Shown: piece after piece, positions 4,229-62,002 of the stretch
How the letters are laid out: every line of letters starts with the position of its first letter
Position numbering within the stretch: position 1 is the first letter of the stretch
NCBI GenBank assembly: GCA_046331345.1
Contig: JAXLRA010000009.1
Span: 69,427 to 133,426 of the forward strand
Origin: Vicinamibacterales bacterium
GTDB lineage: Bacteria; Acidobacteriota; Vicinamibacteria; Vicinamibacterales; CAVVIG01
Direction: 5' to 3'
Length of the DNA: 64,000 bases
Made by a program: the position numbers and the translations under genes
The notes under the pieces: generated by a model
Seen by the model: only the letters and a program-made list of their open reading frames with translations
Databases searched by the model: none
What the model was told of the DNA's origin: nothing

Positions 4229-6483
4229 GCGAGCCTGTTTACACCGCGATCGGCACGCGCCCGGTCCGCCACGACGGCGTCGACAAGGTGACCGGTCGCG
4301 CGAACTACGGCGCCGACCTGTCGCTGCCGGGCATGCTGTTCGGCGTGGTCGTCCGCAGCCCGCACGCGCACGCGCGCATCCTGCGCGTGGACGGCTCCGG
4401 GGCGCTCGCCGTACCCGGCGTGAAGGCCGTCATCAGCGGGAAGGACGTGCCGCTGGTCGACGCGAAGCTCGGCATGGGTGAAGGCGCCATGGACCTCAAG
4501 GACATGAGCGACAACCTGCTGGCGCGCGACAAGGCGCTGTACCACGGACACGCGGTCGCCGCTGTCGCGGCCACCAGCCTTGCCGCGGCCCGCGAAGGCG
4601 CGGCGCTCGTCAAGGTCGAGTACGAGGTGCTGGAACCGGTGCTCGACGTGGACCGCGCCATGGAACCGGGCGCACCGATCCTGCACGAGACGATGACAAC
4701 GCACGCGAGGCCGCCGATTGAGCAGAAGGGGCCGACGAACGTCGCGGGCCGGATGGAGTTGAAGCGGGGCGACCTCGAGGCCGGCTTCGCCGAGGCGGAC
4801 GTCGTGGTCGAACGCGTGTTCCGCACGCCGACCAGCCACCAGGGCTACATCGAGCCGCATGCCTGCGTGGCCCGCGTGAACGAAGACGGCCGCATCAGCA
4901 TCTGGACGAGCACGCAGGGACCCTTCCTGGTGCGTGACGCCACGGCCATGATCCTCGGACTGGACGCGGCGAACGTGAAGGTGACGCCGAGCGAAATCGG
5001 CGGCGGCTTCGGCGGGAAGATTCCCGTCTACCTGGAGCCGCTCGCCGTTGTGCTGGCCAGGGCGACGCAGCGGCCGGTGAAGATGGTGATGACCCGCGAC
5101 GAAGTGTTCCGCGCGTCGGGGCCGACGTCGGCGACGAAGATCCGCATGAAGATGGGCGCGAAGAAGGACGGCACGATCGTCGCCGCGTCAGCATCGCTCT
5201 ACTACGAAGCGGGCGCGTACCGCGGCTCGCCGTCGGGCGCCGGGGCGATGTGCGCCTTTGCCCCGTACAACATTCCCAATTTCTTCATCGAGGCCTACGA
5301 CATCGTCGTCAACAAGCCGAAGGTGGCGGCGTACCGCGCGCCGGGTTCGCCGATGGCGGCGCTCGCGACCGAGTCGCTGATCGACGAGATCGCGGACACG
5401 CTCAAGCTCGACAAGGTCGACATCCGCGTGAAGAACGCCGTGAAGGAGGGCGACAACGCGCCCTACGGCCCGAAGTACGCGCGCATCGGCTTCCACGACG
5501 TGCTGGAGCAGGTCCGCAACAGCGATCACTGGAAGAGCCCCGTGGCCGCGGGCACCGGACGCGGCCTGGCGTGCGGCTTCTGGTTCAACGCCGGCATGAG
5601 CTCGAGCGCCACCGTCACGCTCGGGGCCGACGGCAGCGCGGCCGTGGTGACCGGCAATCCGGACATCGGCGGCACCCGCGCCGCCCAGGCGCTGATGGTG
5701 GCGGAGGAACTCGGCATTCCGGTGGAGCGCGTGCGGCCGAGCGTGGCCGACACCGACACGGCCGGTTTCACCGAGATCACGGCCGGCAGCCGAACCTGCT
5801 ATGCCACGGGCATGGCGGTCGTCGAGGCCTCGCGCGACGTGCGCGAGCAACTGCGCGCCAGGGCCGCGAAGATCTGGAACGTACCGGTCGAGGACACGCG
5901 CTGGGAGCAGGGCCGCGTGGTGCCGCTGAACCCGTCGGACGATCGGCAGCCGCTCACGGTGGCCGAGCTGGCGGCGAAGCTGGCCAAGACCGGCGGTCCC
6001 ATCATCGGCCGCGCGTCGGTGAATCCGCCGATGGCCGGACCGGCGTTCGCCGCCCACATCTGCGACCTTCAGGTCGACAAGGACACGGGCTGCAGCCGCG
6101 TGGTCCGCTATACGACCGTGCAGGACGTCGGCAAGGCCATCCACCCGAGCTACGTCGAGGGGCAGATGCAGGGTGGGGCGTCCCAGGGGATTGGCTGGGC
6201 GCTCAACGAGGAGTACATCTACAACGCCCAGGGCGTGATGGAGAACGCCGGCTTCCTCGACTACCGGATGCCGGTGGCCTCGGATCTGCCGATGATCGAT
6301 ACCATTCTGGTCGAGGTGCCGACACCCGGACATCCCTATGGCGTTCGTGGCGTGGGTGAAGTGCCGATCGTGCCGCCGCTCGGGGCGGTGGCCAACGCGA
6401 TGAGCGCCGCGACCGGGCTCCGGTTCACCGACCTGCCGCTGTCGCCGCCGCGCGTCCTGGAGCGCCTGTCGCAGGCACGGTAG
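4225..6483 (+). CDS. Molybdopterin-binding large subunit of a xanthine dehydrogenase family oxidoreductase (aldehyde oxidase/CoxL-like)
   Basis: 752 aa. The start overlaps the preceding stop (ATGA). Ald_Xan_dh N-terminal block (GxARY..DL, HAHARI) and molybdopterin-binding blocks. Confidence 0.85.
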   Translation: MSEPVYTAIGTRPVRHDGVDKVTGRANYGADLSLPGMLFGVVVRSPHAHARILRVDGSGALAVPGVKAVISGKDVPLVDAKLGMGEGAMDLKDMSDNLLARDKALYHGHAVAAVAATSLAAAREGAALVKVEYEVLEPVLDVDRAMEPGAPILHETMTTHARPPIEQKGPTNVAGRMELKRGDLEAGFAEADVVVERVFRTPTSHQGYIEPHACVARVNEDGRISIWTSTQGPFLVRDATAMILGLDAANVKVTPSEIGGGFGGKIPVYLEPLAVVLARATQRPVKMVMTRDEVFRASGPTSATKIRMKMGAKKDGTIVAASASLYYEAGAYRGSPSGAGAMCAFAPYNIPNFFIEAYDIVVNKPKVAAYRAPGSPMAALATESLIDEIADTLKLDKVDIRVKNAVKEGDNAPYGPKYARIGFHDVLEQVRNSDHWKSPVAAGTGRGLACGFWFNAGMSSSATVTLGADGSAAVVTGNPDIGGTRAAQALMVAEELGIPVERVRPSVADTDTAGFTEITAGSRTCYATGMAVVEASRDVREQLRARAAKIWNVPVEDTRWEQGRVVPLNPSDDRQPLTVAELAAKLAKTGGPIIGRASVNPPMAGPAFAAHICDLQVDKDTGCSRVVRYTTVQDVGKAIHPSYVEGQMQGGASQGIGWALNEEYIYNAQGVMENAGFLDYRMPVASDLPMIDTILVEVPTPGHPYGVRGVGEVPIVPPLGAVANAMSAATGLRFTDLPLSPPRVLERLSQAR

Positions 6484-54536: not shown

Positions 54537-54663
54537 CGGCTCTGGTCCGCCGCCGGCCACTGCGACACGGCCACGCTCCCGCAGCGCTCATGCACCCCTG
54601 ACGTTTCGGTCGTCCAGCAGGGCAAAGCCGATACAGGCAGCTAAAGTGTTTGTATTGTGTGGA

Positions 54664-54714
54664 TTAAGTGGTGGGCGCTACTGGATTCGAACCAGTGACC
54701 TCATGCGTGTGAAG
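54664..54714. repeat. 51-bp direct repeat identical to the 3' half of tRNA-Val (attL-type) bounding the integrated element
   Basis: ttaagtggtgggcgctactggattcgaaccagtgacctcatgcgtgtgaag is identical to 60182..60232. Confidence 0.8.
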
Positions 54715-54927
54715 GATTTCAGCTACTAGCACACGGTAGATCGCCGTACTCCGACCTGACACAAATCAGCGAGATCACTGAGCAAATCACTGCGATTCAC
54801 GTTGTACGCAGTACTAGCGCGTGCTACCGTCGTCCACGTCCGCTGCACCCCCACTGCACCCCAGCGAATCCGCTCAAGGGTGCAATTCCACAGGTGGGGC
54901 ATCCGTTCAGCGCCTGAGGACTCGACC

Positions 54928-56136
54928 ATGCTCCGGAAGATCACTGTTGAACTGACGCGCAAGCTTCCCACCCGCGACGTGGACATCCGTGACACCAAGC
55001 TCACCGGTTTCATGATCCGCTGCCGGGCGACGGGCAGGCACGTCTACCGGGTCCAACTGGGACGTGCGCGCGCGATGACAATCGGGCCGGTGGCGGAATT
55101 GACGCCGGAGCAGGCCAGAGACAAGGCGTGGGAGCACCTGAACGCCGACAAGAGGGGGCTGGACCCTGTCGCCCGGAAGCGCGCAGAGAAGGCCCGCAAG
55201 CCCTTCAGCGCCTTTCTGGACGACGACTATGAGCCGTGGGTGCTGGAGCACCACAAGCGGGGTGCTGAATCGCTGCGTCGTCTCCGCACGGTGTTTGCCG
55301 AACTGAATCACCGCAAGCTCGATGAGATCACGGCGTTCACTGTGGAGAGTTGGCGAACGAAGTGGCTGAAGTCCACAGGTGCCAAACCGGCAACCGTGAA
55401 CAGCTACGTCACAACGCTTCGCGCCGCCCTGTCCCGCGCGGTCGAGTGGGGCATGATTCCGGCGCACCCCCTCAAGAGCGTGAAGCAGTTGAAGGAAGAC
55501 AAGACCGGCCGCGTGAGGTTCCTCAGCGCCGCCGAGGAAACCCGCCTTCGCGACGCCCTGGCCAAGCGAGACGAGGCACGCAAGGCGCGCCGGGAGAAGG
55601 CGAACGCATGGCGGCGTGCGCGGGGCTATGCCGAGTACGACGCGGAAGGGCGGGACCACGTCACCGCGATTGTGCTGCTGGCCCTGAATACCGGACTCCG
55701 CAAGGGCGAGGTCTTCAATCTGGGATGGGCGGATGTGGACTTGCTGACCAAGCTCGTGACGGTGCGCGGCGAGGGGGCGAAGTCCGGTCAGACTCGCTAC
55801 GTCAACCTGAACGATGAGGCTCTTGCCGTGCTGAAGGACTGGCGCAAGCTCTCTGGCGGTGACGGCTACGTGTTCCCCGGCCGCGTCGAGGGCAAGCCGC
55901 TGGAAGACATCAAGCACGCGTGGGGGCCGCTGATGGAGTCCGCGCGGATCACGAACTTCACGATCCACGACCTCCGCCACACATTCGCGTCGAATCTCGT
56001 GATGGCTGGCGTGGACCTGAACACGGTGCGAGAACTGCTCGGACACGCCGACATCAAGATGACGCTGCGTTACGCGCATCTCGCCCCGGAGCACAAGGCT
56101 GCGGCCGTCCAGACCCTGATGCGGCGCGTGTCGTAA
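54928..56136 (+). CDS. Tyrosine-type site-specific integrase (phage integrase family)
   Basis: 402 aa with a C-terminal catalytic box (HDLRHTFAS...LLGHADIKMTLRYAHL) and an N-terminal SAM-like/arm-binding domain. Confidence 0.8.
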   Translation: MLRKITVELTRKLPTRDVDIRDTKLTGFMIRCRATGRHVYRVQLGRARAMTIGPVAELTPEQARDKAWEHLNADKRGLDPVARKRAEKARKPFSAFLDDDYEPWVLEHHKRGAESLRRLRTVFAELNHRKLDEITAFTVESWRTKWLKSTGAKPATVNSYVTTLRAALSRAVEWGMIPAHPLKSVKQLKEDKTGRVRFLSAAEETRLRDALAKRDEARKARREKANAWRRARGYAEYDAEGRDHVTAIVLLALNTGLRKGEVFNLGWADVDLLTKLVTVRGEGAKSGQTRYVNLNDEALAVLKDWRKLSGGDGYVFPGRVEGKPLEDIKHAWGPLMESARITNFTIHDLRHTFASNLVMAGVDLNTVRELLGHADIKMTLRYAHLAPEHKAAAVQTLMRRVS

Positions 56137-56207
56137 AAAGATCGCAAGGCAAAGATCGGCGCTATAGATAGCACAGTCATTCTGCGCGCTACCCGTACGC
56201 TGGATCC

Positions 56208-56447
56208 GTGATGACGAGCGCACCAGACTCACGCCCCGCCGCGCAGACCAGCGCAGCGCCAACCCCCGCTACGCTGTTCGAGAACGACGCCGCCAACTAC
56301 GTCGGCTTCTCGACGGCCTATCTCCGGCTCTGCCGGTCGAAGGGGCGTGGCCCCGCATTCATCCGAGTTGGCCGTTCCATCCGGTACCGCGTAGCCGACC
56401 TGGACGCATGGCTTGACGCTCACCGCGTCGAGTTCCGCAACCGCTGA
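56208..56447 (+). CDS. AlpA/excisionase-like helix-turn-helix DNA-binding protein
   Basis: 79 aa. The FSTAYLRLCRSKGRGPAFIRVGRSIRYRVADLDAWL pattern matches MerR/AlpA-type Xis. Confidence 0.5.
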   Translation: MMTSAPDSRPAAQTSAAPTPATLFENDAANYVGFSTAYLRLCRSKGRGPAFIRVGRSIRYRVADLDAWLDAHRVEFRNR

Positions 56448-56617
56448 CTCTGCGATCTCCGCTCACCTGTTCGCCATGAACCGGTGAACGTCTGCACGTG
56501 CGCGTTCCCGTGCGCGTGGGTGGTCTGGGGCGCGTGAGCCGGGCGGTAGCTGCTGCCTTGCCACTGCTGCGGCGGTGGCCGATCACCTTCAACTCTTGAT
56601 TGCCCGAGGTGTGTCTA

Positions 56618-57211
56618 ATGGCACTGACGACGAAGTGGCCTACGCTGAATCTGGCAGCGGAGTGGAAGGGACGGCACAAGATCAAGCCGCACAACGTGCG
56701 GCGCGCGTGGGACGACTACCTGGGGCGCTTCCCGTGGGAGTGGTTCTGTACCCTGACGTTCGACCCGAACCGGGCCCACTCCAAGCGCGACCTCGTAGAC
56801 CGGGAAGCGTTCGACTGGTGCAATCTGACGGCGCGGACAGTGCGGAGGCCAATCGGCTGGGTCTACGCGCCAGAGCGCACGCGCAGCGGCGCGTGGCACG
56901 CGCACGTCCTGATGACCGGAGGGATCGAACGGCGAGAACTGCGGGCCTCAGAAGCCTTCTGGCGCGCGCGAAACGGCATTCTGGACATCAAGGCTGTCTG
57001 GGAGCGCCGGGGCGTTAGCATCTACACCTCAAAGTCCGCTTCGATGGCGGGCACGCTGGTTTGCTCCGACACTCTGATGCGCTACCGCAGCGGTCTTCAG
57101 GACTCAGTGCTGGTCGCGCTTCATCCTGCCGAACCTGACGCCGCAATCGCCGTCGCCGATTGCTGGACAACACGCGAAGCGCCTAGTTGTCCCGAGCGCG
57201 CTGACGATTAA
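56618..57211 (+). CDS. HUH-endonuclease rolling-circle replication initiator (Rep)-like protein
   Basis: Motif 1 FCTLTFDP, HUH motif AWHAHVLM, and a candidate catalytic Tyr in SIYTSK. Confidence 0.5.
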   Translation: MALTTKWPTLNLAAEWKGRHKIKPHNVRRAWDDYLGRFPWEWFCTLTFDPNRAHSKRDLVDREAFDWCNLTARTVRRPIGWVYAPERTRSGAWHAHVLMTGGIERRELRASEAFWRARNGILDIKAVWERRGVSIYTSKSASMAGTLVCSDTLMRYRSGLQDSVLVALHPAEPDAAIAVADCWTTREAPSCPERADD

Positions 57212-57228
57212 ACAGTTCGAGGAAATTC

Positions 57229-57513
57229 GTGGCCAGAAACATCAGCGGACTGCGGCGCGGCGGGCCTGGACGACCGAAAGGTGTGCCGAACGTCGCTACC
57301 CGCACGCTCAAAGAGTTCTGGGGTGGGTTCTTCGACTCCCAAGAGTATCGGCAGAGCGCAAAGCGTCGCATGCTGGCGGGGCGGGCACCCCACTTGGAGA
57401 CGTACCTGCTGTCCAGAGTGTTCGGTCGGCCCGTTGCTGGCGAAGATTCAACGGCTCTTGCTGGGCCCGCGATAATCACCTACCGCTGGCTCAACGATTC
57501 TGACCTGGGTTGA
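57229..57513 (+). CDS. Hypothetical small basic protein (island cargo)
   Basis: 94-aa ORF with a GTG start. Weak coding evidence. Confidence 0.3.
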   Translation: MARNISGLRRGGPGRPKGVPNVATRTLKEFWGGFFDSQEYRQSAKRRMLAGRAPHLETYLLSRVFGRPVAGEDSTALAGPAIITYRWLNDSDLG

Positions 57514-57790
57514 CGCAGCTGTCCCGCCGGTCAAGGGAATGCCGTCGCGGATGTAAACGTCCACGGGTGGCAAGCTTGCGCGTCTGCTTATCGATGATGC
57601 GAGCGCGCGTCCTGGCTGGGGATAGCAACCGGGAGGTTCAGCCGCTGCGTTGAATGCCGTACCGCCACTGCGTCCTAGCGTCGGGTAGGGGGACCGCGTT
57701 GGACATTCATGCTTGCCTAGATAGAATGCCCGGCGAAAGGTTCAAGCCCGCTTGCCACGATGGCTTGGGCCCTCGTTGTGGAGGCCTTTG

Positions 57791-58837
57791 ATGACGCGCG
57801 CGCCCCTCGATGCGTTTGGACGTTCCCTTGCGACCGCTCTGAGTAGTGCAACCCTTGCATCTGCTATCGCGTGTAGCGGCGGGTCCACGAGTCCGACGCA
57901 AAACTCTGGCAACGCAGGGGGCTCTAGCGGCACGGTGGCGGCACCTACGCAAGCGCGACTGACGGTAAATGCCACCGAGACCTTTAGCGGGAGTCCGATC
58001 ACCGTCGACTACACAGCAATTTGCGGCGGCTCCAAGGCTAGTGGCAAGACGAATGCAGAAGGCGTACTAGTTCCTGTAGGGACCTGCGAAGTCAGAGTTG
58101 GGATGGACGCGAGCGACAGCCGAACATCGTCGCAGTTGGTGCCCTCAATCTACTCGAACTACACCATTGCCGGGGACACAACACTGACGACTGATCTCCC
58201 AAGCTGGGAGAAGCTATTCAAGCCGGCTTCCCATCCAAACCTTGAGCCCAAGCACTTCATCGAAGCGTACAGAGGTAGAGGCAATCAAGGCGTGAACCAA
58301 ACCTGGCGGACACAGCCATCCAAGTACGTCGTCAGCGACCCCAATGGACGCCTGTCTCAGTATGCCGACCCTAGGCAAAACCCGGAGTTTGACTACATCA
58401 TTCGGGCGTTTGAAGCGGTCAATGACTACACGAGGGGCTTCCTGAGGGTTCCGGATCGGGGCGAGATTGAAATCACGGCCCAGAATAGGGACCACACGAC
58501 GCTGAGAGAGGGTGAATTCCTGATCAAAATCTCCTCGGGAGGGAACGAGTGGGAGATGCGTCGCAACAACGAGATCATTGCTAGCTATGCGCTAGGAAAC
58601 ACAGACGTCGCAAACGCGTTTACGCTCCAATCAGAAATGGTCTCTGCCGTGCAGGGAGGAGACAGCGAAAGCGAGCCCTACTCTCGGAACGGGATGAGAA
58701 ATGCAAGAGTGCTCGACATAGATAGAGTCTGGGGAGAGTTCAACTATCAAAAGAGAAGAAATGGGGAGAAGATTCTCCCGTCAGGTGACATCACACCGTC
58801 GCCATTCGACTTTCCCGTCGAATTTAGGCTTCAGTGA
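57791..58837 (+). CDS. Hypothetical lipoprotein (island cargo, lower GC)
   Basis: GGAGG SD. Lipobox ASAIAC|SGG. Codon usage is atypical for the host. Confidence 0.5.
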   Translation: MTRAPLDAFGRSLATALSSATLASAIACSGGSTSPTQNSGNAGGSSGTVAAPTQARLTVNATETFSGSPITVDYTAICGGSKASGKTNAEGVLVPVGTCEVRVGMDASDSRTSSQLVPSIYSNYTIAGDTTLTTDLPSWEKLFKPASHPNLEPKHFIEAYRGRGNQGVNQTWRTQPSKYVVSDPNGRLSQYADPRQNPEFDYIIRAFEAVNDYTRGFLRVPDRGEIEITAQNRDHTTLREGEFLIKISSGGNEWEMRRNNEIIASYALGNTDVANAFTLQSEMVSAVQGGDSESEPYSRNGMRNARVLDIDRVWGEFNYQKRRNGEKILPSGDITPSPFDFPVEFRLQ

Positions 58838-59033
58838 AGACGTGAGGCTCCAGAACCATTTCAGCACCGCCCTTGTCCCCAAACGTTGCTCGTCGTCCTG
58901 GCGCCGGAATGGGCGGCGCTGCAACGCCGCGATCTCGCCGACCTCCGCCCCACAAACAATCCAAGGCAGTGGCCGGTTTAACTCCAAGCGGACCGGCGGC
59001 GTTTGCGCTGGCCAGAGATGAACCCTGGCTGTT

Positions 59034-60014
59034 CTAGTCTCTGGGCGACACGACTGTGACGCCGCCGCCGCCGTGCTTGGCCACGATTTCCGGCCGTTCA
59101 GTGGTAAGGCCTGGAACCACTCGGTGTGGTATTCGCAGCGTGATCGGTCGGCGCGGCATCAGAGTGGGCAATTCAAAGCTACCGATCGCGGCAATCTCGG
59201 GGGCTATGCGGCCACTTGCGGCGTCGGCTGTGGGTTGAACCGAGCGGTATCTGACTTCAACCATGAAACGCTGCAGCGGTGCCGTTTCGAGGTTCTCGAC
59301 CACAACGATTGAGTCCATCCGATCGGGGAATTTGACTGGCGTAACGAATCGCACCATGACTCTCGCCGGACCATTGAACGGAAGAGAATCCGCCTTTGCC
59401 TCTGGAACTGGCGTCACGGGGAGGAGTTCCAGCGATTCACGGGCGTCGTTCCTCCTAGCCGTGTCGAGCGGCGTAAGGATCGGGGGAGCGAGTCTTGACG
59501 GCTTCGGCGGCGTCGGTGGGGCTGGTTCCGGTTCGATGATGCCCAGGATCTTGTAGGTTTCAGATTGAGCCTTCCGGCCGTCGAGGCTCACCGACCACGA
59601 AAGCTTGGCAGCATCCCCGTTGAACGTAACGCTGACGCGGTCTGCCAGTGGAACGCGGCAACTCCGCCGGTTGATGTAGTCGAACCGGAGCGCATACTTG
59701 CTGTCGCAGTTCACGACAACGACTCGCCCATCAGGCAACCCCAGTGTGAGCGTCGCGCCCATGACTGAATATGCGATCGGGCGTGGTGGTGTTACGACAG
59801 CACTTCCCGTGCTGCTGCCCGAGCAATTGACCGAGTTGCCGAGAACCCCGCAGTCCACCAGCCCGAAAGACTGGGTCTGTACTCGCCCTGGGACGACGTA
59901 CGAATAGCGCGATTCGCTGCTCTGGCGGTCCATCACGGCGGCTGTGAAGGTTTGTGCTGGCGCGTCGGACGCGAGCAACGTGGCGGCTGCCATCAACGCG
60001 AGAATCGTCTTCAC
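59034..60014 (-). CDS. Hypothetical secreted protein (island cargo)
   Basis: GTG start with GGGGGGA upstream. Signal peptide MKTILALMAAATLLASDAPAQ. Contains a PEPAPPTPPKP linker. Confidence 0.5.
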   Translation of the reverse strand: MKTILALMAAATLLASDAPAQTFTAAVMDRQSSESRYSYVVPGRVQTQSFGLVDCGVLGNSVNCSGSSTGSAVVTPPRPIAYSVMGATLTLGLPDGRVVVVNCDSKYALRFDYINRRSCRVPLADRVSVTFNGDAAKLSWSVSLDGRKAQSETYKILGIIEPEPAPPTPPKPSRLAPPILTPLDTARRNDARESLELLPVTPVPEAKADSLPFNGPARVMVRFVTPVKFPDRMDSIVVVENLETAPLQRFMVEVRYRSVQPTADAASGRIAPEIAAIGSFELPTLMPRRPITLRIPHRVVPGLTTERPEIVAKHGGGGVTVVSPRD

Positions 60015-60186
60015 CTGCTCCCCCCCGCCACACCTCGATGTGGAGTCGCCCGACTATACGCAAACGATGGCAGGCCGCGTCAACAGTTCACGCGGCCGAG
60101 CACCCCTAATGCACCCCCGCCACGGGGTTCGAAAACGACCCGGCTCTGGCGTGTGCGCCTATCTTGTTGAAGCGTATGTGTTTAAG

Positions 60187-60263
60187 TGGTGGGCGCTACT
60201 GGATTCGAACCAGTGACCTCATGCGTGTGAAGCATGCGCTCTAACCAACTGAGCTAAGCGCCC
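60187..60263 (-). tRNA. tRNA-Val (anticodon CAC)
   Basis: Reverse complement reads GGGCGCTTAGCTCAGTTGGTTAGAGCGCATGCTTCACACGCATGAGGTCACTGGTTCGAATCCAGTAGCGCCCACCA. Cloverleaf: 7-bp acceptor stem, anticodon stem CATGC/GCATG, loop TTCACAC, T-loop TTCGAAT, encoded CCA. Confidence 0.85.
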
Positions 60264-60399: not shown

Positions 60400-60906
60400 T
60401 CAGACCCCGAGGCCGCGCCGGTTCCGCCAGAGCCACCACACCACCGCGGGCGCAACCGTGAAGCAGGTGGCGTGAACGGCCATCTCTCCGTAGATCGCTG
60501 GATCCGGCTGCGCGTACAAGCCGTTCTGGGTGAAGAACACGACGTCGACCAGGCCCAGGTACATCAGCGAACTGCCGCAGACGATGCCGAAGAGGACGCC
60601 GGACGGTGCGCGTCGCCACAGTCCGGTGGCGCCGAGCAACGCGGCGATGGTCGTCCAGGCGTTGGCCGCCGGAAACGACAGGTCGAACGTCCGGAAGCAG
60701 GCGACGCCAGGAAACCGCAGGGCGTCGGTCCCGAAGAACGTGGTCCAGTACGTAGCCTCGCCGAGGGCCGCCAGCACCAGCAGCGCGATGACGATGCGCC
60801 GCTGGGTGTCGTTCACGCGCACGTCCTGGTTGGTCCACCTGAAGGTGGACCCCACGAATGTCTCCGTGGCTGCCCCCGTCCCTCCGCCCCCGCCCGCCTC
60901 ACTCAT
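60400..60906 (-). CDS. Hypothetical polytopic membrane protein
   Basis: Start at MSEAGGGGG (Met 42 of the track ORF). The upstream part of the track ORF is a translation of the heptamer repeat. Four TM helices. Confidence 0.4.
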   Translation of the reverse strand: MSEAGGGGGTGAATETFVGSTFRWTNQDVRVNDTQRRIVIALLVLAALGEATYWTTFFGTDALRFPGVACFRTFDLSFPAANAWTTIAALLGATGLWRRAPSGVLFGIVCGSSLMYLGLVDVVFFTQNGLYAQPDPAIYGEMAVHATCFTVAPAVVWWLWRNRRGLGV

Positions 60907-60933
60907 CACCGATGCCTCGTCTCCGCCTCGAGT

Positions 60934-61135
60934 CCCTGATCCCGAATCCCCGGGTCTCTGCCCTGATCCCTGAGTCCCTAGTCCCTGAACCCTGATCCCG
61001 AGTCCCTGCCCCCAAGTCCCTGCCCCCAAGTCCCTGACCTCTGGCCCTGGTCGCTGGCCCCTGATCTCTAATCCCTAGTCCCTAGTCCCTAGTCCCTAGT
61101 CCCTAGTCCCTAGTCCCTAGTCCCTAGTCCGTGAC
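60934..61135. repeat. Heptanucleotide tandem repeat tract: about 7-8 perfect CCCTAGT units preceded by about 20 degenerate units (ccctgat/ccctgag/ccctgaa/gtccctgccccca)
   Basis: Read directly from the sequence. The stop codon of the hydroxylase gene is supplied by a repeat unit (CTA on plus). Coordinates are approximate within about 7 nt. Confidence 0.7.
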
Positions 61136-62002
61136 CCCGATCCCTGACTCCCTGCTGTCCAGTTCCTGCGTGCGCCGCAGCCCGCGGAACGGGAGCAGCA
61201 GCTGCCCGATGAACGTCGGCGGCACGGGATTCGGGTCGATGCCGATGGTGATGCAGGGTGTCTCCGACGGAGGGATGTAGGTGCCGAAGATGTGGTCCCA
61301 CAGCATGAGGTTCATGCCGAAGTTGCTGTTGCCCTCGCGCTTGTCGATGGAGTGGTGCAGCCAGTGCGTGGCCGGCGTGCCGACGATCGCATTCACCCAT
61401 CGCGGCGTGGGGAGGGTGACATTCGAATGCTGGAGCTGCGCCGTGAAGTTCCCGAATGCGGTGGCCCAGAGGAGCACGGCCGGGGGCGCCCCGAGTGCGA
61501 GCAGCGGTGCTGTCGTGAGGAACGCGCCGCTGCCGATGTCGAGGGCGTGGATGCGCGTGGTCTTCAGGAACGTCATGCGCGTGGCGCTGTGGTGCAGCAT
61601 GTGCACCCACCAGAGTGCCGGCACGCTGTGCAGCAGGCGGTGCTGCCAGTACTGGAAGAACTCGGCGATGAACAGCGCCAGCGGTACCTGCAGCACCAGC
61701 GGCCAGTCCGACGGCCAGACCTGCCAGGCCGCCGCAGGCACGAACGCCTGCGCCAGGGCCACGCCGCCGAAGGCGCCCAGCGCGAACCCGAGGAAGAAGT
61801 GCCCGATGTCGTGCCAGAGGTCGTCGTCGGCGTCGAGCCACGCCGCCTGGTCGGGCCAGATCCGTTCCGCCACCAGCAGCAGGGCCCCTGCCACGACGGT
61901 CGCGAGGTTGACGACGAGGTCGCCGGCGACGTGGAGGGCGAGCCCCGCGTACACGCTCCCAAGGGCCGCCGCGAAGCACGCGGTCCAGAGTGCGCCGCTC
62001 AC
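61124..62002 (-). CDS. Fatty acid hydroxylase / sterol desaturase superfamily membrane protein (His-box di-iron enzyme)
   Basis: 292 aa from GTG (GGGGG 5 nt upstream). His boxes HRLLH, HMLHH and HWLHH. The start overlaps the reductase stop (GTGA). Confidence 0.65.
   Translation of the reverse strand: MSGALWTACFAAALGSVYAGLALHVAGDLVVNLATVVAGALLLVAERIWPDQAAWLDADDDLWHDIGHFFLGFALGAFGGVALAQAFVPAAAWQVWPSDWPLVLQVPLALFIAEFFQYWQHRLLHSVPALWWVHMLHHSATRMTFLKTTRIHALDIGSGAFLTTAPLLALGAPPAVLLWATAFGNFTAQLQHSNVTLPTPRWVNAIVGTPATHWLHHSIDKREGNSNFGMNLMLWDHIFGTYIPPSETPCITIGIDPNPVPPTFIGQLLLPFRGLRRTQELDSRESGIGVTD

Follow-up and report, generated by a model that had tools for sequence, protein, structure and literature searches.

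The bacteria known to carry phage satellites are few, and mostly host-associated or marine. The PICIs are islands of about 10-15 kb with a primase/helicase-type Rep and iteron origins, usually a master repressor and often capsid-size genes, and the VEIMEs are defined by their presence in virions. To our knowledge, the satellite families described so far use primase- or helicase-type replication modules. The PICMI of Vibrionaceae (about 6.1 kb) has the gene arrangement int-alpA-prim, shows rolling-circle-like amplification and is packaged as concatemers (eight-mers) (PMC10803314), and VEIMEs are marine satellites with terS homologues (PMC9618062). pSAM2, an element that integrates and replicates, belongs to the pC194 family of rolling-circle replicons (PMC2440964). 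Here we describe an integrated element of 5.5 kb found in a stretch of 64,000 nucleotides (hereafter the window) of a soil bacterium of the Vicinamibacterales (Acidobacteriota), on a 387,970-bp contig (JAXLRA010000009.1) of a metagenome-assembled genome. We consider, with moderate confidence, that this element most likely lives as a phage satellite and represents a new family of small rolling-circle satellites analogous to PICMI and PICI.

The element occupies a tRNA-Val gene (Table 1), the only tRNA gene that ARAGORN called in the window, the displaced copy at the other end being left uncalled. A repeat search returned a direct repeat at 54664-54717 and 60182-60235 with 53 of 54 bases identical, within which pairwise alignment delimits 51 exact bases, with similarity dropping sharply on either side. 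A 51-mer that recurs exactly within 9 kb rules out chance. In tRNA numbering the repeat takes in positions 32-77, beginning in the anticodon loop and including the 3' end, with 5 further nt downstream; the stretch from the anticodon loop to the tRNA 3' end is the usual crossover segment of tRNA-targeting tyrosine integrases. The two copies lie 5,518 bp apart, start to start, which gives the expected size of the excised circle. The locus has what characterizes a tRNA-targeting integrative element, that is, a terminal tyrosine recombinase and tRNA 3' repeats with the intact tRNA at one end and a fragment at the other, and the sequence itself shows how the element entered tRNA-Val: a tyrosine integrase recombined across a 51-bp core and left the tRNA restored. 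Ordinary host genes flank it, a PAS histidine kinase to the left and a membrane protein to the right.

Six genes are packed in these 5.5 kb. Four core genes, all on the forward strand and reading away from the displaced tRNA fragment, are arranged in the order int - xis/alpA - rep - terS-like gene (orf94) and are followed by two cargo genes; with intergenic gaps of 167-238 bp there is no room for others. The GC content falls to 0.53-0.57 at around 58000-59000, versus 0.62-0.72 in the flanks. None of the six genes is a capsid, tail, lysis, large-terminase (TerL) or other structural gene, nor do they include a Zot/pI-type ATPase, a small hydrophobic coat-like membrane protein or a single-stranded DNA (ssDNA)-binding protein, as judged from the open reading frames (ORFs), Pfam and PHROG; Pfam and NCBIfam scans of the same genes detected no FtsK/TraSA-type translocase, spread or other conjugation domain. 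The combination is the one expected of a satellite: an integrase, an AlpA/Xis-type regulator and a replication initiator of its own (here an HUH Rep, not a primase-helicase), no virion, lysis or TerL genes, and a total length far short of a phage genome. An earlier note, made by reading this DNA, had described the exact duplication of the 3' 51 nt of tRNA-Val, the integrase and AlpA/Xis-like helix-turn-helix (HTH) protein between the copies, the low GC of the cargo region and the lack of transfer genes, and alignment (with the same coordinates), Pfam, the GC profile and the domain scans bear it out on all of these. Its hedged reading, a small integrative-replicative element that is pSAM2-like or satellite-like, is upheld as well, and the new evidence favors the second half of it. 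It had overlooked the 94-aa gene after rep, the four-way junction with its CTTGAT box and the paired GCACCCC repeats.

Table 1. Features of the element, in order of their position in the window (aa, amino acids).
Feature	Position	Strand	Basis
attR: displaced 3' 46 nt of tRNA-Val plus 5 nt downstream	54664..54714	-	exact 51-bp identity with 60182-60232
Candidate arm-type integrase sites, CTGCACCCC twice, 11 nt apart	54843..54862	+	motif search
Tyrosine integrase, 402 aa from ATG 54928 (ORF open from TTG 54802)	54928..56136	+	Pfam, PHROG
Xis/AlpA-like HTH protein, 79 aa	56208..56447	+	HTH_17 2.3e-8; phrog_66 1.4e-7
GC-rich hairpin (stem 10 bp, loop 4 nt) adjoining the four-way junction on its 5' side	56495..56518	+	DNA fold; kept in L014, L015
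Conserved four-way junction, candidate origin structure or rep leader	56519..56587	+	folding, covariance model
CTTGAT box, candidate double-strand-origin nick site, 18 nt before rep ATG	56595..56600	+	conserved position
HUH rolling-circle Rep, 197 aa (GenBank U0Q55_16260)	56618..57211	+	PF23343
orf94, small-terminase-like, 94 aa, directly after rep	57229..57513	+	synteny
Sigma-70-like promoter match upstream of the lipoprotein gene	57700..57727	+	TGGACA-16-TAGAAT, 10/12 positions, consensus match only
Cargo 1: putative lipoprotein, 348 aa from ATG 57791 (ORF open from 57752)	57791..58837	+	
Cargo 2: putative secreted protein, 326 aa	59034..60014	-	signal-peptide-like N-terminus
Second candidate arm-type pair, GCACCCC twice, 11 nt apart, 65 nt inside attL	60100..60117	+	
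attL: 51-bp repeat copy forming the 3' part of the intact tRNA-Val	60182..60232	-	exact identity
tRNA-Val(CAC), intact, integration target	60187..60263	-	ARAGORN; Rfam RF00005 74.5 bits

The closest functional analogue is PICMI. The two are similar in size (6.1 versus 5.5 kb), both are minimal, each having a single replication gene and a few genes of unknown function besides int and an AlpA-type regulator, and neither has capsid-remodelling genes; concatemer packaging has been demonstrated for PICMI and is only proposed for the element, which is known from its sequence alone. PICMI differs in having a primase, integrating next to fis, lacking a terS homologue and using a virulent vibriophage as helper, whereas the element has an HUH Rep, a tRNA target, a terS-like gene and an acidobacterial host. 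With PICIs/SaPIs and VEIMEs (PMC6092414, PMC9618062) it shares the gene order int - regulator/xis - replication - terS homologue - accessory genes. The redirection of helper packaging by a satellite-encoded small terminase is also theirs (PMC9618062) and is no more than an idea here, and none of the features that distinguish these families (their size, iterons, repressor, capsid-size genes and presence in virions) is shown for the element. The resemblance to the AICEs of the pSAM2/RepSA type (PMC2440964) lies in tRNA integration, a tyrosine integrase with Xis, an adjacent rolling-circle Rep and a CTTGAT-type nick site, but AICEs carry FtsK-like TraSA, spread and kor genes and conjugate among Actinobacteria, and the element has none of these genes. 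Moreover, its Rep is likened to RepSA by description, not by sequence; the sole Pfam match, PF23343, is named for plectrovirus ORF2/inovirus G2P. Initiators of the inovirus/plectrovirus gene II type thus belong to the same Pfam family, and the Ff model places the origin just before the rep gene, in structured intergenic DNA. Unlike the inoviruses, RS1 and TLC, however, the element has no assembly ATPase or coat genes, and the gene next to rep is of a tailed-phage packaging family; inovirus-type integration proceeds via XerCD, whereas the element uses a tyrosine integrase of its own. A tRNA-integrating island with satellite-like architecture is therefore a known kind of thing. The combination of a G2P-family HUH Rep, an orphan uncharacterized small terminase, a four-way-junction CTTGAT origin and an acidobacterial host is not described in anything we have found. 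The suggestion of the earlier note that Rep plus integrase is likely undescribed in this phylum was not contradicted, either by the annotated collections, where Rep matched no plasmid and one phage record weakly, or by the literature searched, which is absence of evidence only.

Judged by gene order, orf94 would be an orphan small-terminase-like gene, and it is the key to the nature of the element. It is apparently unannotated in GenBank, because rep is U0Q55_16260 and the next annotated gene, that of the lipoprotein, is U0Q55_16265, and locus tags stepping by five are usual for the annotation pipeline. We have collected 31 homologues with the N-terminal motif RNxSGLRRGGPGRPKGVPNKAT. The family stands directly upstream of TerL in all 12 phage contexts checked (L072/L073, L076 and 10 IMG/VR contigs; L numbers designate the related loci and contigs). 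In L072/L073, long phage contigs with portal and SU10-type capsid genes, the homologue overlaps the start of TerL (phrog_2, 7.6e-40), and in L076 it lies directly upstream of a Terminase_6N protein. IMG/VR gave more than 600 pattern matches and holds at least 61 viral contigs with orf94 relatives, the nearest being that of L080 at 53% identity. In 16 of the 17 IMG/VR contigs examined, the relative is directly followed by an ORF of about 410-500 aa, and the downstream ORFs that were tested proved to be large terminases in every case (10/10, E values from 1e-17 to 1e-50). Across the IMG/VR loci L080-L140, a GRPKG-type family of 90-115 aa upstream of TerL was seen to be widespread in contigs of uncultivated phages. 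The GRPKG-type/orf94 family is thus a candidate for an uncharacterized small-terminase family of many uncultivated phages.

By contrast with these phage contexts, no TerL follows orf94 in the window, L013, L071, L004 or L074. What comes after the homologue is a 167-aa ORF in L013, cas genes in L071 and genes on the opposite strand in L004 and L074, while L015 ends about 160 nt past it and is uninformative. In other Rep lineages a different small-terminase-like family occupies the slot after rep. L007/L017 have there a 155-aa HTH protein (matches of about 1e-6 to phrog_2538 and phrog_7344) that no TerL follows, and L009 has a Terminase_2 protein with TerL following. An orphan small terminase beside int, xis/alpA and a replication initiator is a signature of PICI-type satellites (PMC9618062). 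Pfam gave nothing for orf94 and all 33 family members, save for one member with E=0.028 to DUF5681; the orf94 profile had no credible match among PDB sequences, and orf94 had no match among annotated phages. In L071 (260-7201) the cas genes directly after the homologue, which is about 54% identical, encode Cas_GSU0053, Cas_GSU0054 and a Cas3-like protein, along with a protein of 306 aa; the homologue is preceded by 259 nt of non-coding sequence, and neither Rep nor TerL is present on this 7.4-kb contig.

The replication protein is, as predicted from its motifs, a minimal single-tyrosine HUH initiator. The segments FCTLTFDP, WHAHVLM and YTSK, which the earlier note had taken for rolling-circle motifs, are real: they contain the motifs TLTFD, H94xH96 and Y136xxK139, invariant or nearly so in the homologues, with T47, H94, H96 and Y136 invariant in 60 sequences, T45, L46, F48 and K139 conserved in at least 90% of them, and a single catalytic tyrosine. 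Membership of the HUH family in an HMM search, on which that reading had been staked, was found too, with Rep scoring 30.8 bits against PF23343 (REP_ORF2-G2P; curated cut-off 27.8); the same family is the precomputed assignment for five of seven Rep homologues. Those seven were all that a word-indexed search of 5.8 billion proteins retrieved. An exhaustive profile search gave 1773 cluster representatives at E<=1e-3, 73 of them at E<=1e-30, and among the best 150 matches listed most are of about 120-250 aa. There was no match to Rep in 72,556 plasmids, a single weak one, to the initiator of a virus of 6.3 kb, among 50,697 phage records, and in a scan of species-representative genomes one full-length relative, in an Acidobacteria gp6 metagenome-assembled genome (MAG), and one short partial one, in a Bifidobacteriaceae MAG. 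The Rep profile found no related solved structure among PDB sequences. Related loci were searched for with a 7-sequence Rep alignment, those of 60 or 20 Reps being too diverse. In IMG/VR the distant relatives of Rep (28-30% identity) come from small genomes of inovirus-like make-up. Read by eye, the ORF translations of one such genome, L011, include a P-loop protein reminiscent of a Zot-type assembly ATPase and the product of a coat-like gene. The nearer relatives adjoin terminase genes, as in L009, whose Rep (40% identical) precedes a TerS+TerL pair by 1.1 kb.

The 170-bp spacer between xis and rep is nearly invariant among the window, L014 and L015, whose Reps are only 59-71% identical. We read this structured region as a candidate replication origin, consisting of a putative nick site and a fold that would form in the displaced sense strand. 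The four-way junction is closed by an outer stem, P1 (56519-56525 pairing with 56581-56587), around three arms: P2 (56529-56540), a 3-bp hairpin with a conserved GCRNGA loop; P3 (56541-56558), a hairpin of wholly variable sequence; and P4 (56560-56579), a long stem. Distant relatives keep this architecture of P1 around three arms, followed by a tail of a few to about 15 nt, CTTGAT and the rep ribosome-binding site. In the window the junction together with the CTTGAT box takes up 82 nt. CTTGAT stands at the same position in most relatives and reads CTTGGT or CTTGAC in two. This hexamer is the nick consensus (5'-CTTGAT-3') of rolling-circle replicons of the pC194 family (PMC2440964; PMC10378824).

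The fold itself was examined in several ways. Of 13 sequences, 10 have the four-way junction as their minimum-energy structure and two others come close to it, compared with 1.9% of dinucleotide shuffles that fold in this way. Folding is usually more favorable for the sense strand than for the complementary one (-40.5 versus -24.7 kcal/mol in the window). Since MAFFT alignments misaligned the variable hairpins, we have built a covariance model limited to P1, P2 and P4 from six relatives, excluding the window and its close kin. This model finds the window copy at 56519-56604 (E=2.8e-5) and copies in L013-L015, and all of its matches at E<0.05 lie upstream of rep, on the rep strand. In the model-guided alignment 95.3% of the cells pair, versus at most 56% in controls with slid partners; compensatory double changes occur at 5 of 13 pairs, and none of 500 shuffles reaches the observed covariation score. 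P1, P2 and P4 are also predicted by RNAalifold, conserved U-G pairs among them. Pairs taken from the per-sequence minimum-energy folds were not used as evidence of covariation, because this would be circular, and arm P3 rests on independent folding and the shuffle control only. The P2 loop followed by CTTGAT 40-105 nt downstream occurs once in the window and, in other loci, almost only upstream of rep. No Rfam family matches the structured region, the element or the relatives, the tRNA aside. As a further observation on arm P4, its inner loop contains GCTTAGCGA just upstream of rep in L016, L019, L024, L009 and L028. TAGCGA, present in the P4 loop of these five relatives, is the CS-6 consensus of single-strand origins of the ssoA type (PMC10378824); the clade of the window lacks the inner P4 hairpin that carries it.

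At the left end of the element, the integrase matches Phage_integrase (2.8e-31), Arm-DNA-bind_3 (6.4e-9) and Phage_int_SAM_5 in Pfam and the integrase family phrog_1 (3.4e-66). The Xis-like protein, whose PHROG is labelled 'excisionase and transcriptional regulator', shares 83% identity with its positional counterpart in L014, and the gene at the xis position of L001 matches Phage_AlpA in Pfam. We infer that the paired GCACCCC heptamers near both ends are arm-type binding sites of the integrase. The left pair (54845-54862) lies 131 nt inside attR and 66 nt before the start of int. The heptamer is not over-represented in the window (19 matches versus 18 expected), with 8 of the 19 in or beside the element. 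The geometry of these sites matches that of L001, a contig of 5,006 bp of the attP type. There the doubled motif GCTACCCCGGyGCTACCCCGG stands on either side of a tRNA fragment, at a distance of 52 nt on the left and 136 nt on the right. Two-sided arm motifs resemble an attP junction, so that this contig most likely comes from an excised circle or a tandem array. From the tRNA fragment onward L001 is 78% identical to L018, which has a truncated tRNA 3' fragment between host DNA and int, the same arrangement as in the window.

In L001 (337-390) and L018 (about 5756-5810) the att core is the 3' fragment of a different tRNA, TGGTCGGGATGGCGGGATTyGAACCCACGACCCCCTGA on the reverse strand, and their paired arm motif is GCTACCCC, not GCACCCC. 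As they differ from the window in both, core and arm sites co-vary with the integrase lineage. We also considered that L018 sits at the same chromosomal locus as the window, both being flanked by a PAS histidine kinase, and discarded this, the kinases being 24% identical and the tRNA fragments different. Outside the element, 83 nt left of attR (54581-54598), there is a stretch, GCAGCGCTCATGCACCCC, that resembles GCACCCCTAATGCACCCC at the same offset left of attL (60100-60117). This likeness could be due to chance, to extended attB/attP homology or to the trace of an earlier occupant of the site.

The element belongs, from comparison of sequences, to a family of compact elements and is not a one-off. 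Three short soil contigs, L013-L015, have the block of Xis, intergenic region, Rep and orf94 with a DNA identity of 71-80%, and the closest relative is L013, with a Rep 71% identical. L001 and L018 share the Int-AlpA-Rep arrangement, with identities of 46-49% for Rep and about 25% for Int; L019/L020, beside a tRNA-Lys, have an integrase that is encoded on the other strand and adjoins HTH-Rep. Integrase homologues were found near Rep in at least 11 loci. Most of these contigs are short, and scans of them for tRNAs and repeats were mostly uninformative. Another relative, in L003 (4869-14803), is riddled with insertion sequences; its integrase is truncated, and at least three Transposase_mut (IS256-family) copies surround rep, two of them encoding identical 419-aa proteins.

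Cargo differs between members, and no relative carries the two cargo genes of the window next to Rep. In L013 the slot after orf94 (1068-1568) is occupied by the partial ORF of 167 aa mentioned above, by eye like a restriction endonuclease, with no match in PHROG, PADLOC or NCBIfam. The lipoprotein gene, with GGAGG 6 nt before its ATG, is the stretch of lowest GC in the element, and GenBank gives it a shorter product of 244 aa. The earlier note had called both cargo products exported; the ORFs and the low GC are confirmed, and the export calls remain a reading of the N-termini, MTRAPLDAFGRSLATALSSATLASAIAC with a lipobox-like AIAC in the lipoprotein and MKTILALMAAATLLASDAPAQ in the secreted protein. 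Neither has a match in Pfam, PHROG, PADLOC or NCBIfam. The lipoprotein has four matches, one being its own shorter GenBank product and the other three of about 300 aa and 49-54% identical. Among AF2 models, that of the lipoprotein (mean pLDDT 54) is confident only for an N-terminal beta-sandwich, in which Foldseek against the PDB recognized a resemblance to transthyretin-like domains and nothing else; that of the secreted protein (mean pLDDT 45) is uninterpretable. A 49%-identical paralogue of the lipoprotein, U0Q55_02820, is found on another contig of the same MAG. In L078 (2823-8888) a homologue about 54% identical adjoins a BilA-D ubiquitin-like anti-phage operon and an HTH_3/Peptidase_M78 pair, which looks like a defense-island or mobile context. 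A role of the cargo in defense or superinfection exclusion is speculation. Beyond the element, just right of the tRNA (60929-61153), there is a degenerate tandem array of the heptamer CCCTRGT (about 24 copies, 72% matches) that overlaps the 5' end of the 209-aa membrane-protein ORF (60400-61029, reverse strand) and would encode a Gly-rich N-terminus.

A life cycle can be proposed from these parts. The trigger would probably be the infection or induction of a helper tailed phage. Int, acting on the paired GCACCCC arm sites at both ends, and the HTH protein would then excise a 5.5-kb circle, and Rep would nick the sense strand at or near CTTGAT, beside the junction, to start rolling-circle replication, a process that would naturally yield head-to-tail concatemers. 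The orphan small-terminase homologue may recruit the large terminase of the helper to the DNA of the element, after which helper capsids would be filled with the multimers by the headful mechanism and carry them into new cells, where the element would integrate at tRNA-Val; the two putatively exported cargo proteins would be accessory genes. We put forward only tentatively the wider picture, in which a whole family might amplify by HUH-Rep rolling circle from the four-way-junction/CTTGAT origin, have its concatemers packaged via the orphan small terminase into capsids of soil tailed phages, and ferry variable cargo (exported proteins here, possibly defense genes in relatives) between soil bacteria.

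What counts most against the satellite interpretation is that no helper phage was identified and that helper dependence, excision, the circle, concatemers and encapsidation are predictions made from sequence and not from reads. Besides, no repressor or anti-repressor module typical of PICIs is visible, the TerS call is made from synteny only because orf94 has no detectable similarity to any solved or Pfam-defined small terminase, Rep is not satellite-specific since that of L009 adjoins a complete TerS+TerL pair, and the four-way junction could alternatively be the leader of the rep mRNA. The same genes might also make up an integrative rolling-circle element of plasmid-like character, a pSAM2 without transfer genes, that leaves the chromosome, multiplies as a small circle and re-enters it, spreads only vertically or through chance mobilization, and for which orf94 is an accessory DNA-binding protein unrelated to packaging. 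The int-xis-rep module and the CTTGAT-type box do match pSAM2 and the pC194 family, structural phage genes are lacking and orf94 has no recognizable terminase fold or family; we nevertheless consider this unlikely, in view of the small-terminase position of the orf94 family in 12 of 12 phage contexts, of the non-homologous TerS-like gene that fills the slot after rep in L007/L017 and of the failure of Rep to match any of the 72,556 plasmids.

The order int-xis-replication-terS is, on the other hand, that of temperate phages, and the L009 Rep, 40% identical and 1.1 kb upstream of TerS+TerL, would also be in keeping with a decayed tailed prophage whose left end, int-xis-rep-terS, survived a deletion running from terL through the lysis genes, the rest being unrelated filler. 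Decay agrees poorly with att copies that are perfect over 51 bp and four intact core ORFs, with the recurrence of the same compact core with different cargo in independent relatives, with the attP-type junction of a related 5-kb contig and with the strong conservation of non-coding sequence upstream of rep, and we regard a remnant as improbable. The Pfam family of Rep, that of plectrovirus ORF2 and inovirus G2P, brings to mind instead a defective or satellite filamentous (inovirus-type) ssDNA element that obtains coat and assembly from a helper inovirus, as RS1 and TLC of Vibrio would exemplify; the small inovirus-like genomes with distant Rep relatives, among them L011 with its Zot-like and coat-like genes by eye, and a structure specific to the sense strand, which fits an ssDNA intermediate, speak for it. 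Yet the element has no Zot/pI-type ATPase, coat-like protein or ssDNA-binding protein, the gene after rep comes from a family tied to the TerL of tailed phages, and the nearer Rep relatives adjoin terminase genes, all of which makes such an origin very improbable. Equally slight is the chance that the HUH protein is a Rep-type relaxase and the CTTGAT region an oriT, in an integrative mobilizable element that borrows the conjugation pore of another. Rep-like HUH proteins do serve as relaxases in some integrative mobilizable elements and the element has no transfer genes of its own, but neither does it have a coupling protein or any other conjugation gene, the Rep family elsewhere keeps to viral and satellite-like contexts and is absent from the plasmid collection, and the orphan terS-like gene points to transfer by capsids.

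Taken by itself, the structured region upstream of rep is a candidate for a new origin or RNA motif, one that Rfam does not contain. Should the satellite interpretation fail, the locus would still be a well-delimited and apparently intact integrative rolling-circle element, and a potential genetic tool for Vicinamibacteria. If it holds, the satellite lifestyle would be extended to a dominant and poorly tractable soil phylum, rolling-circle initiators of the ssDNA-phage type would be linked to the parasitism of tailed phages, and Rep plus orf94 without TerL, together with the junction-CTTGAT motif, would provide markers with which to find such elements in metagenomes.

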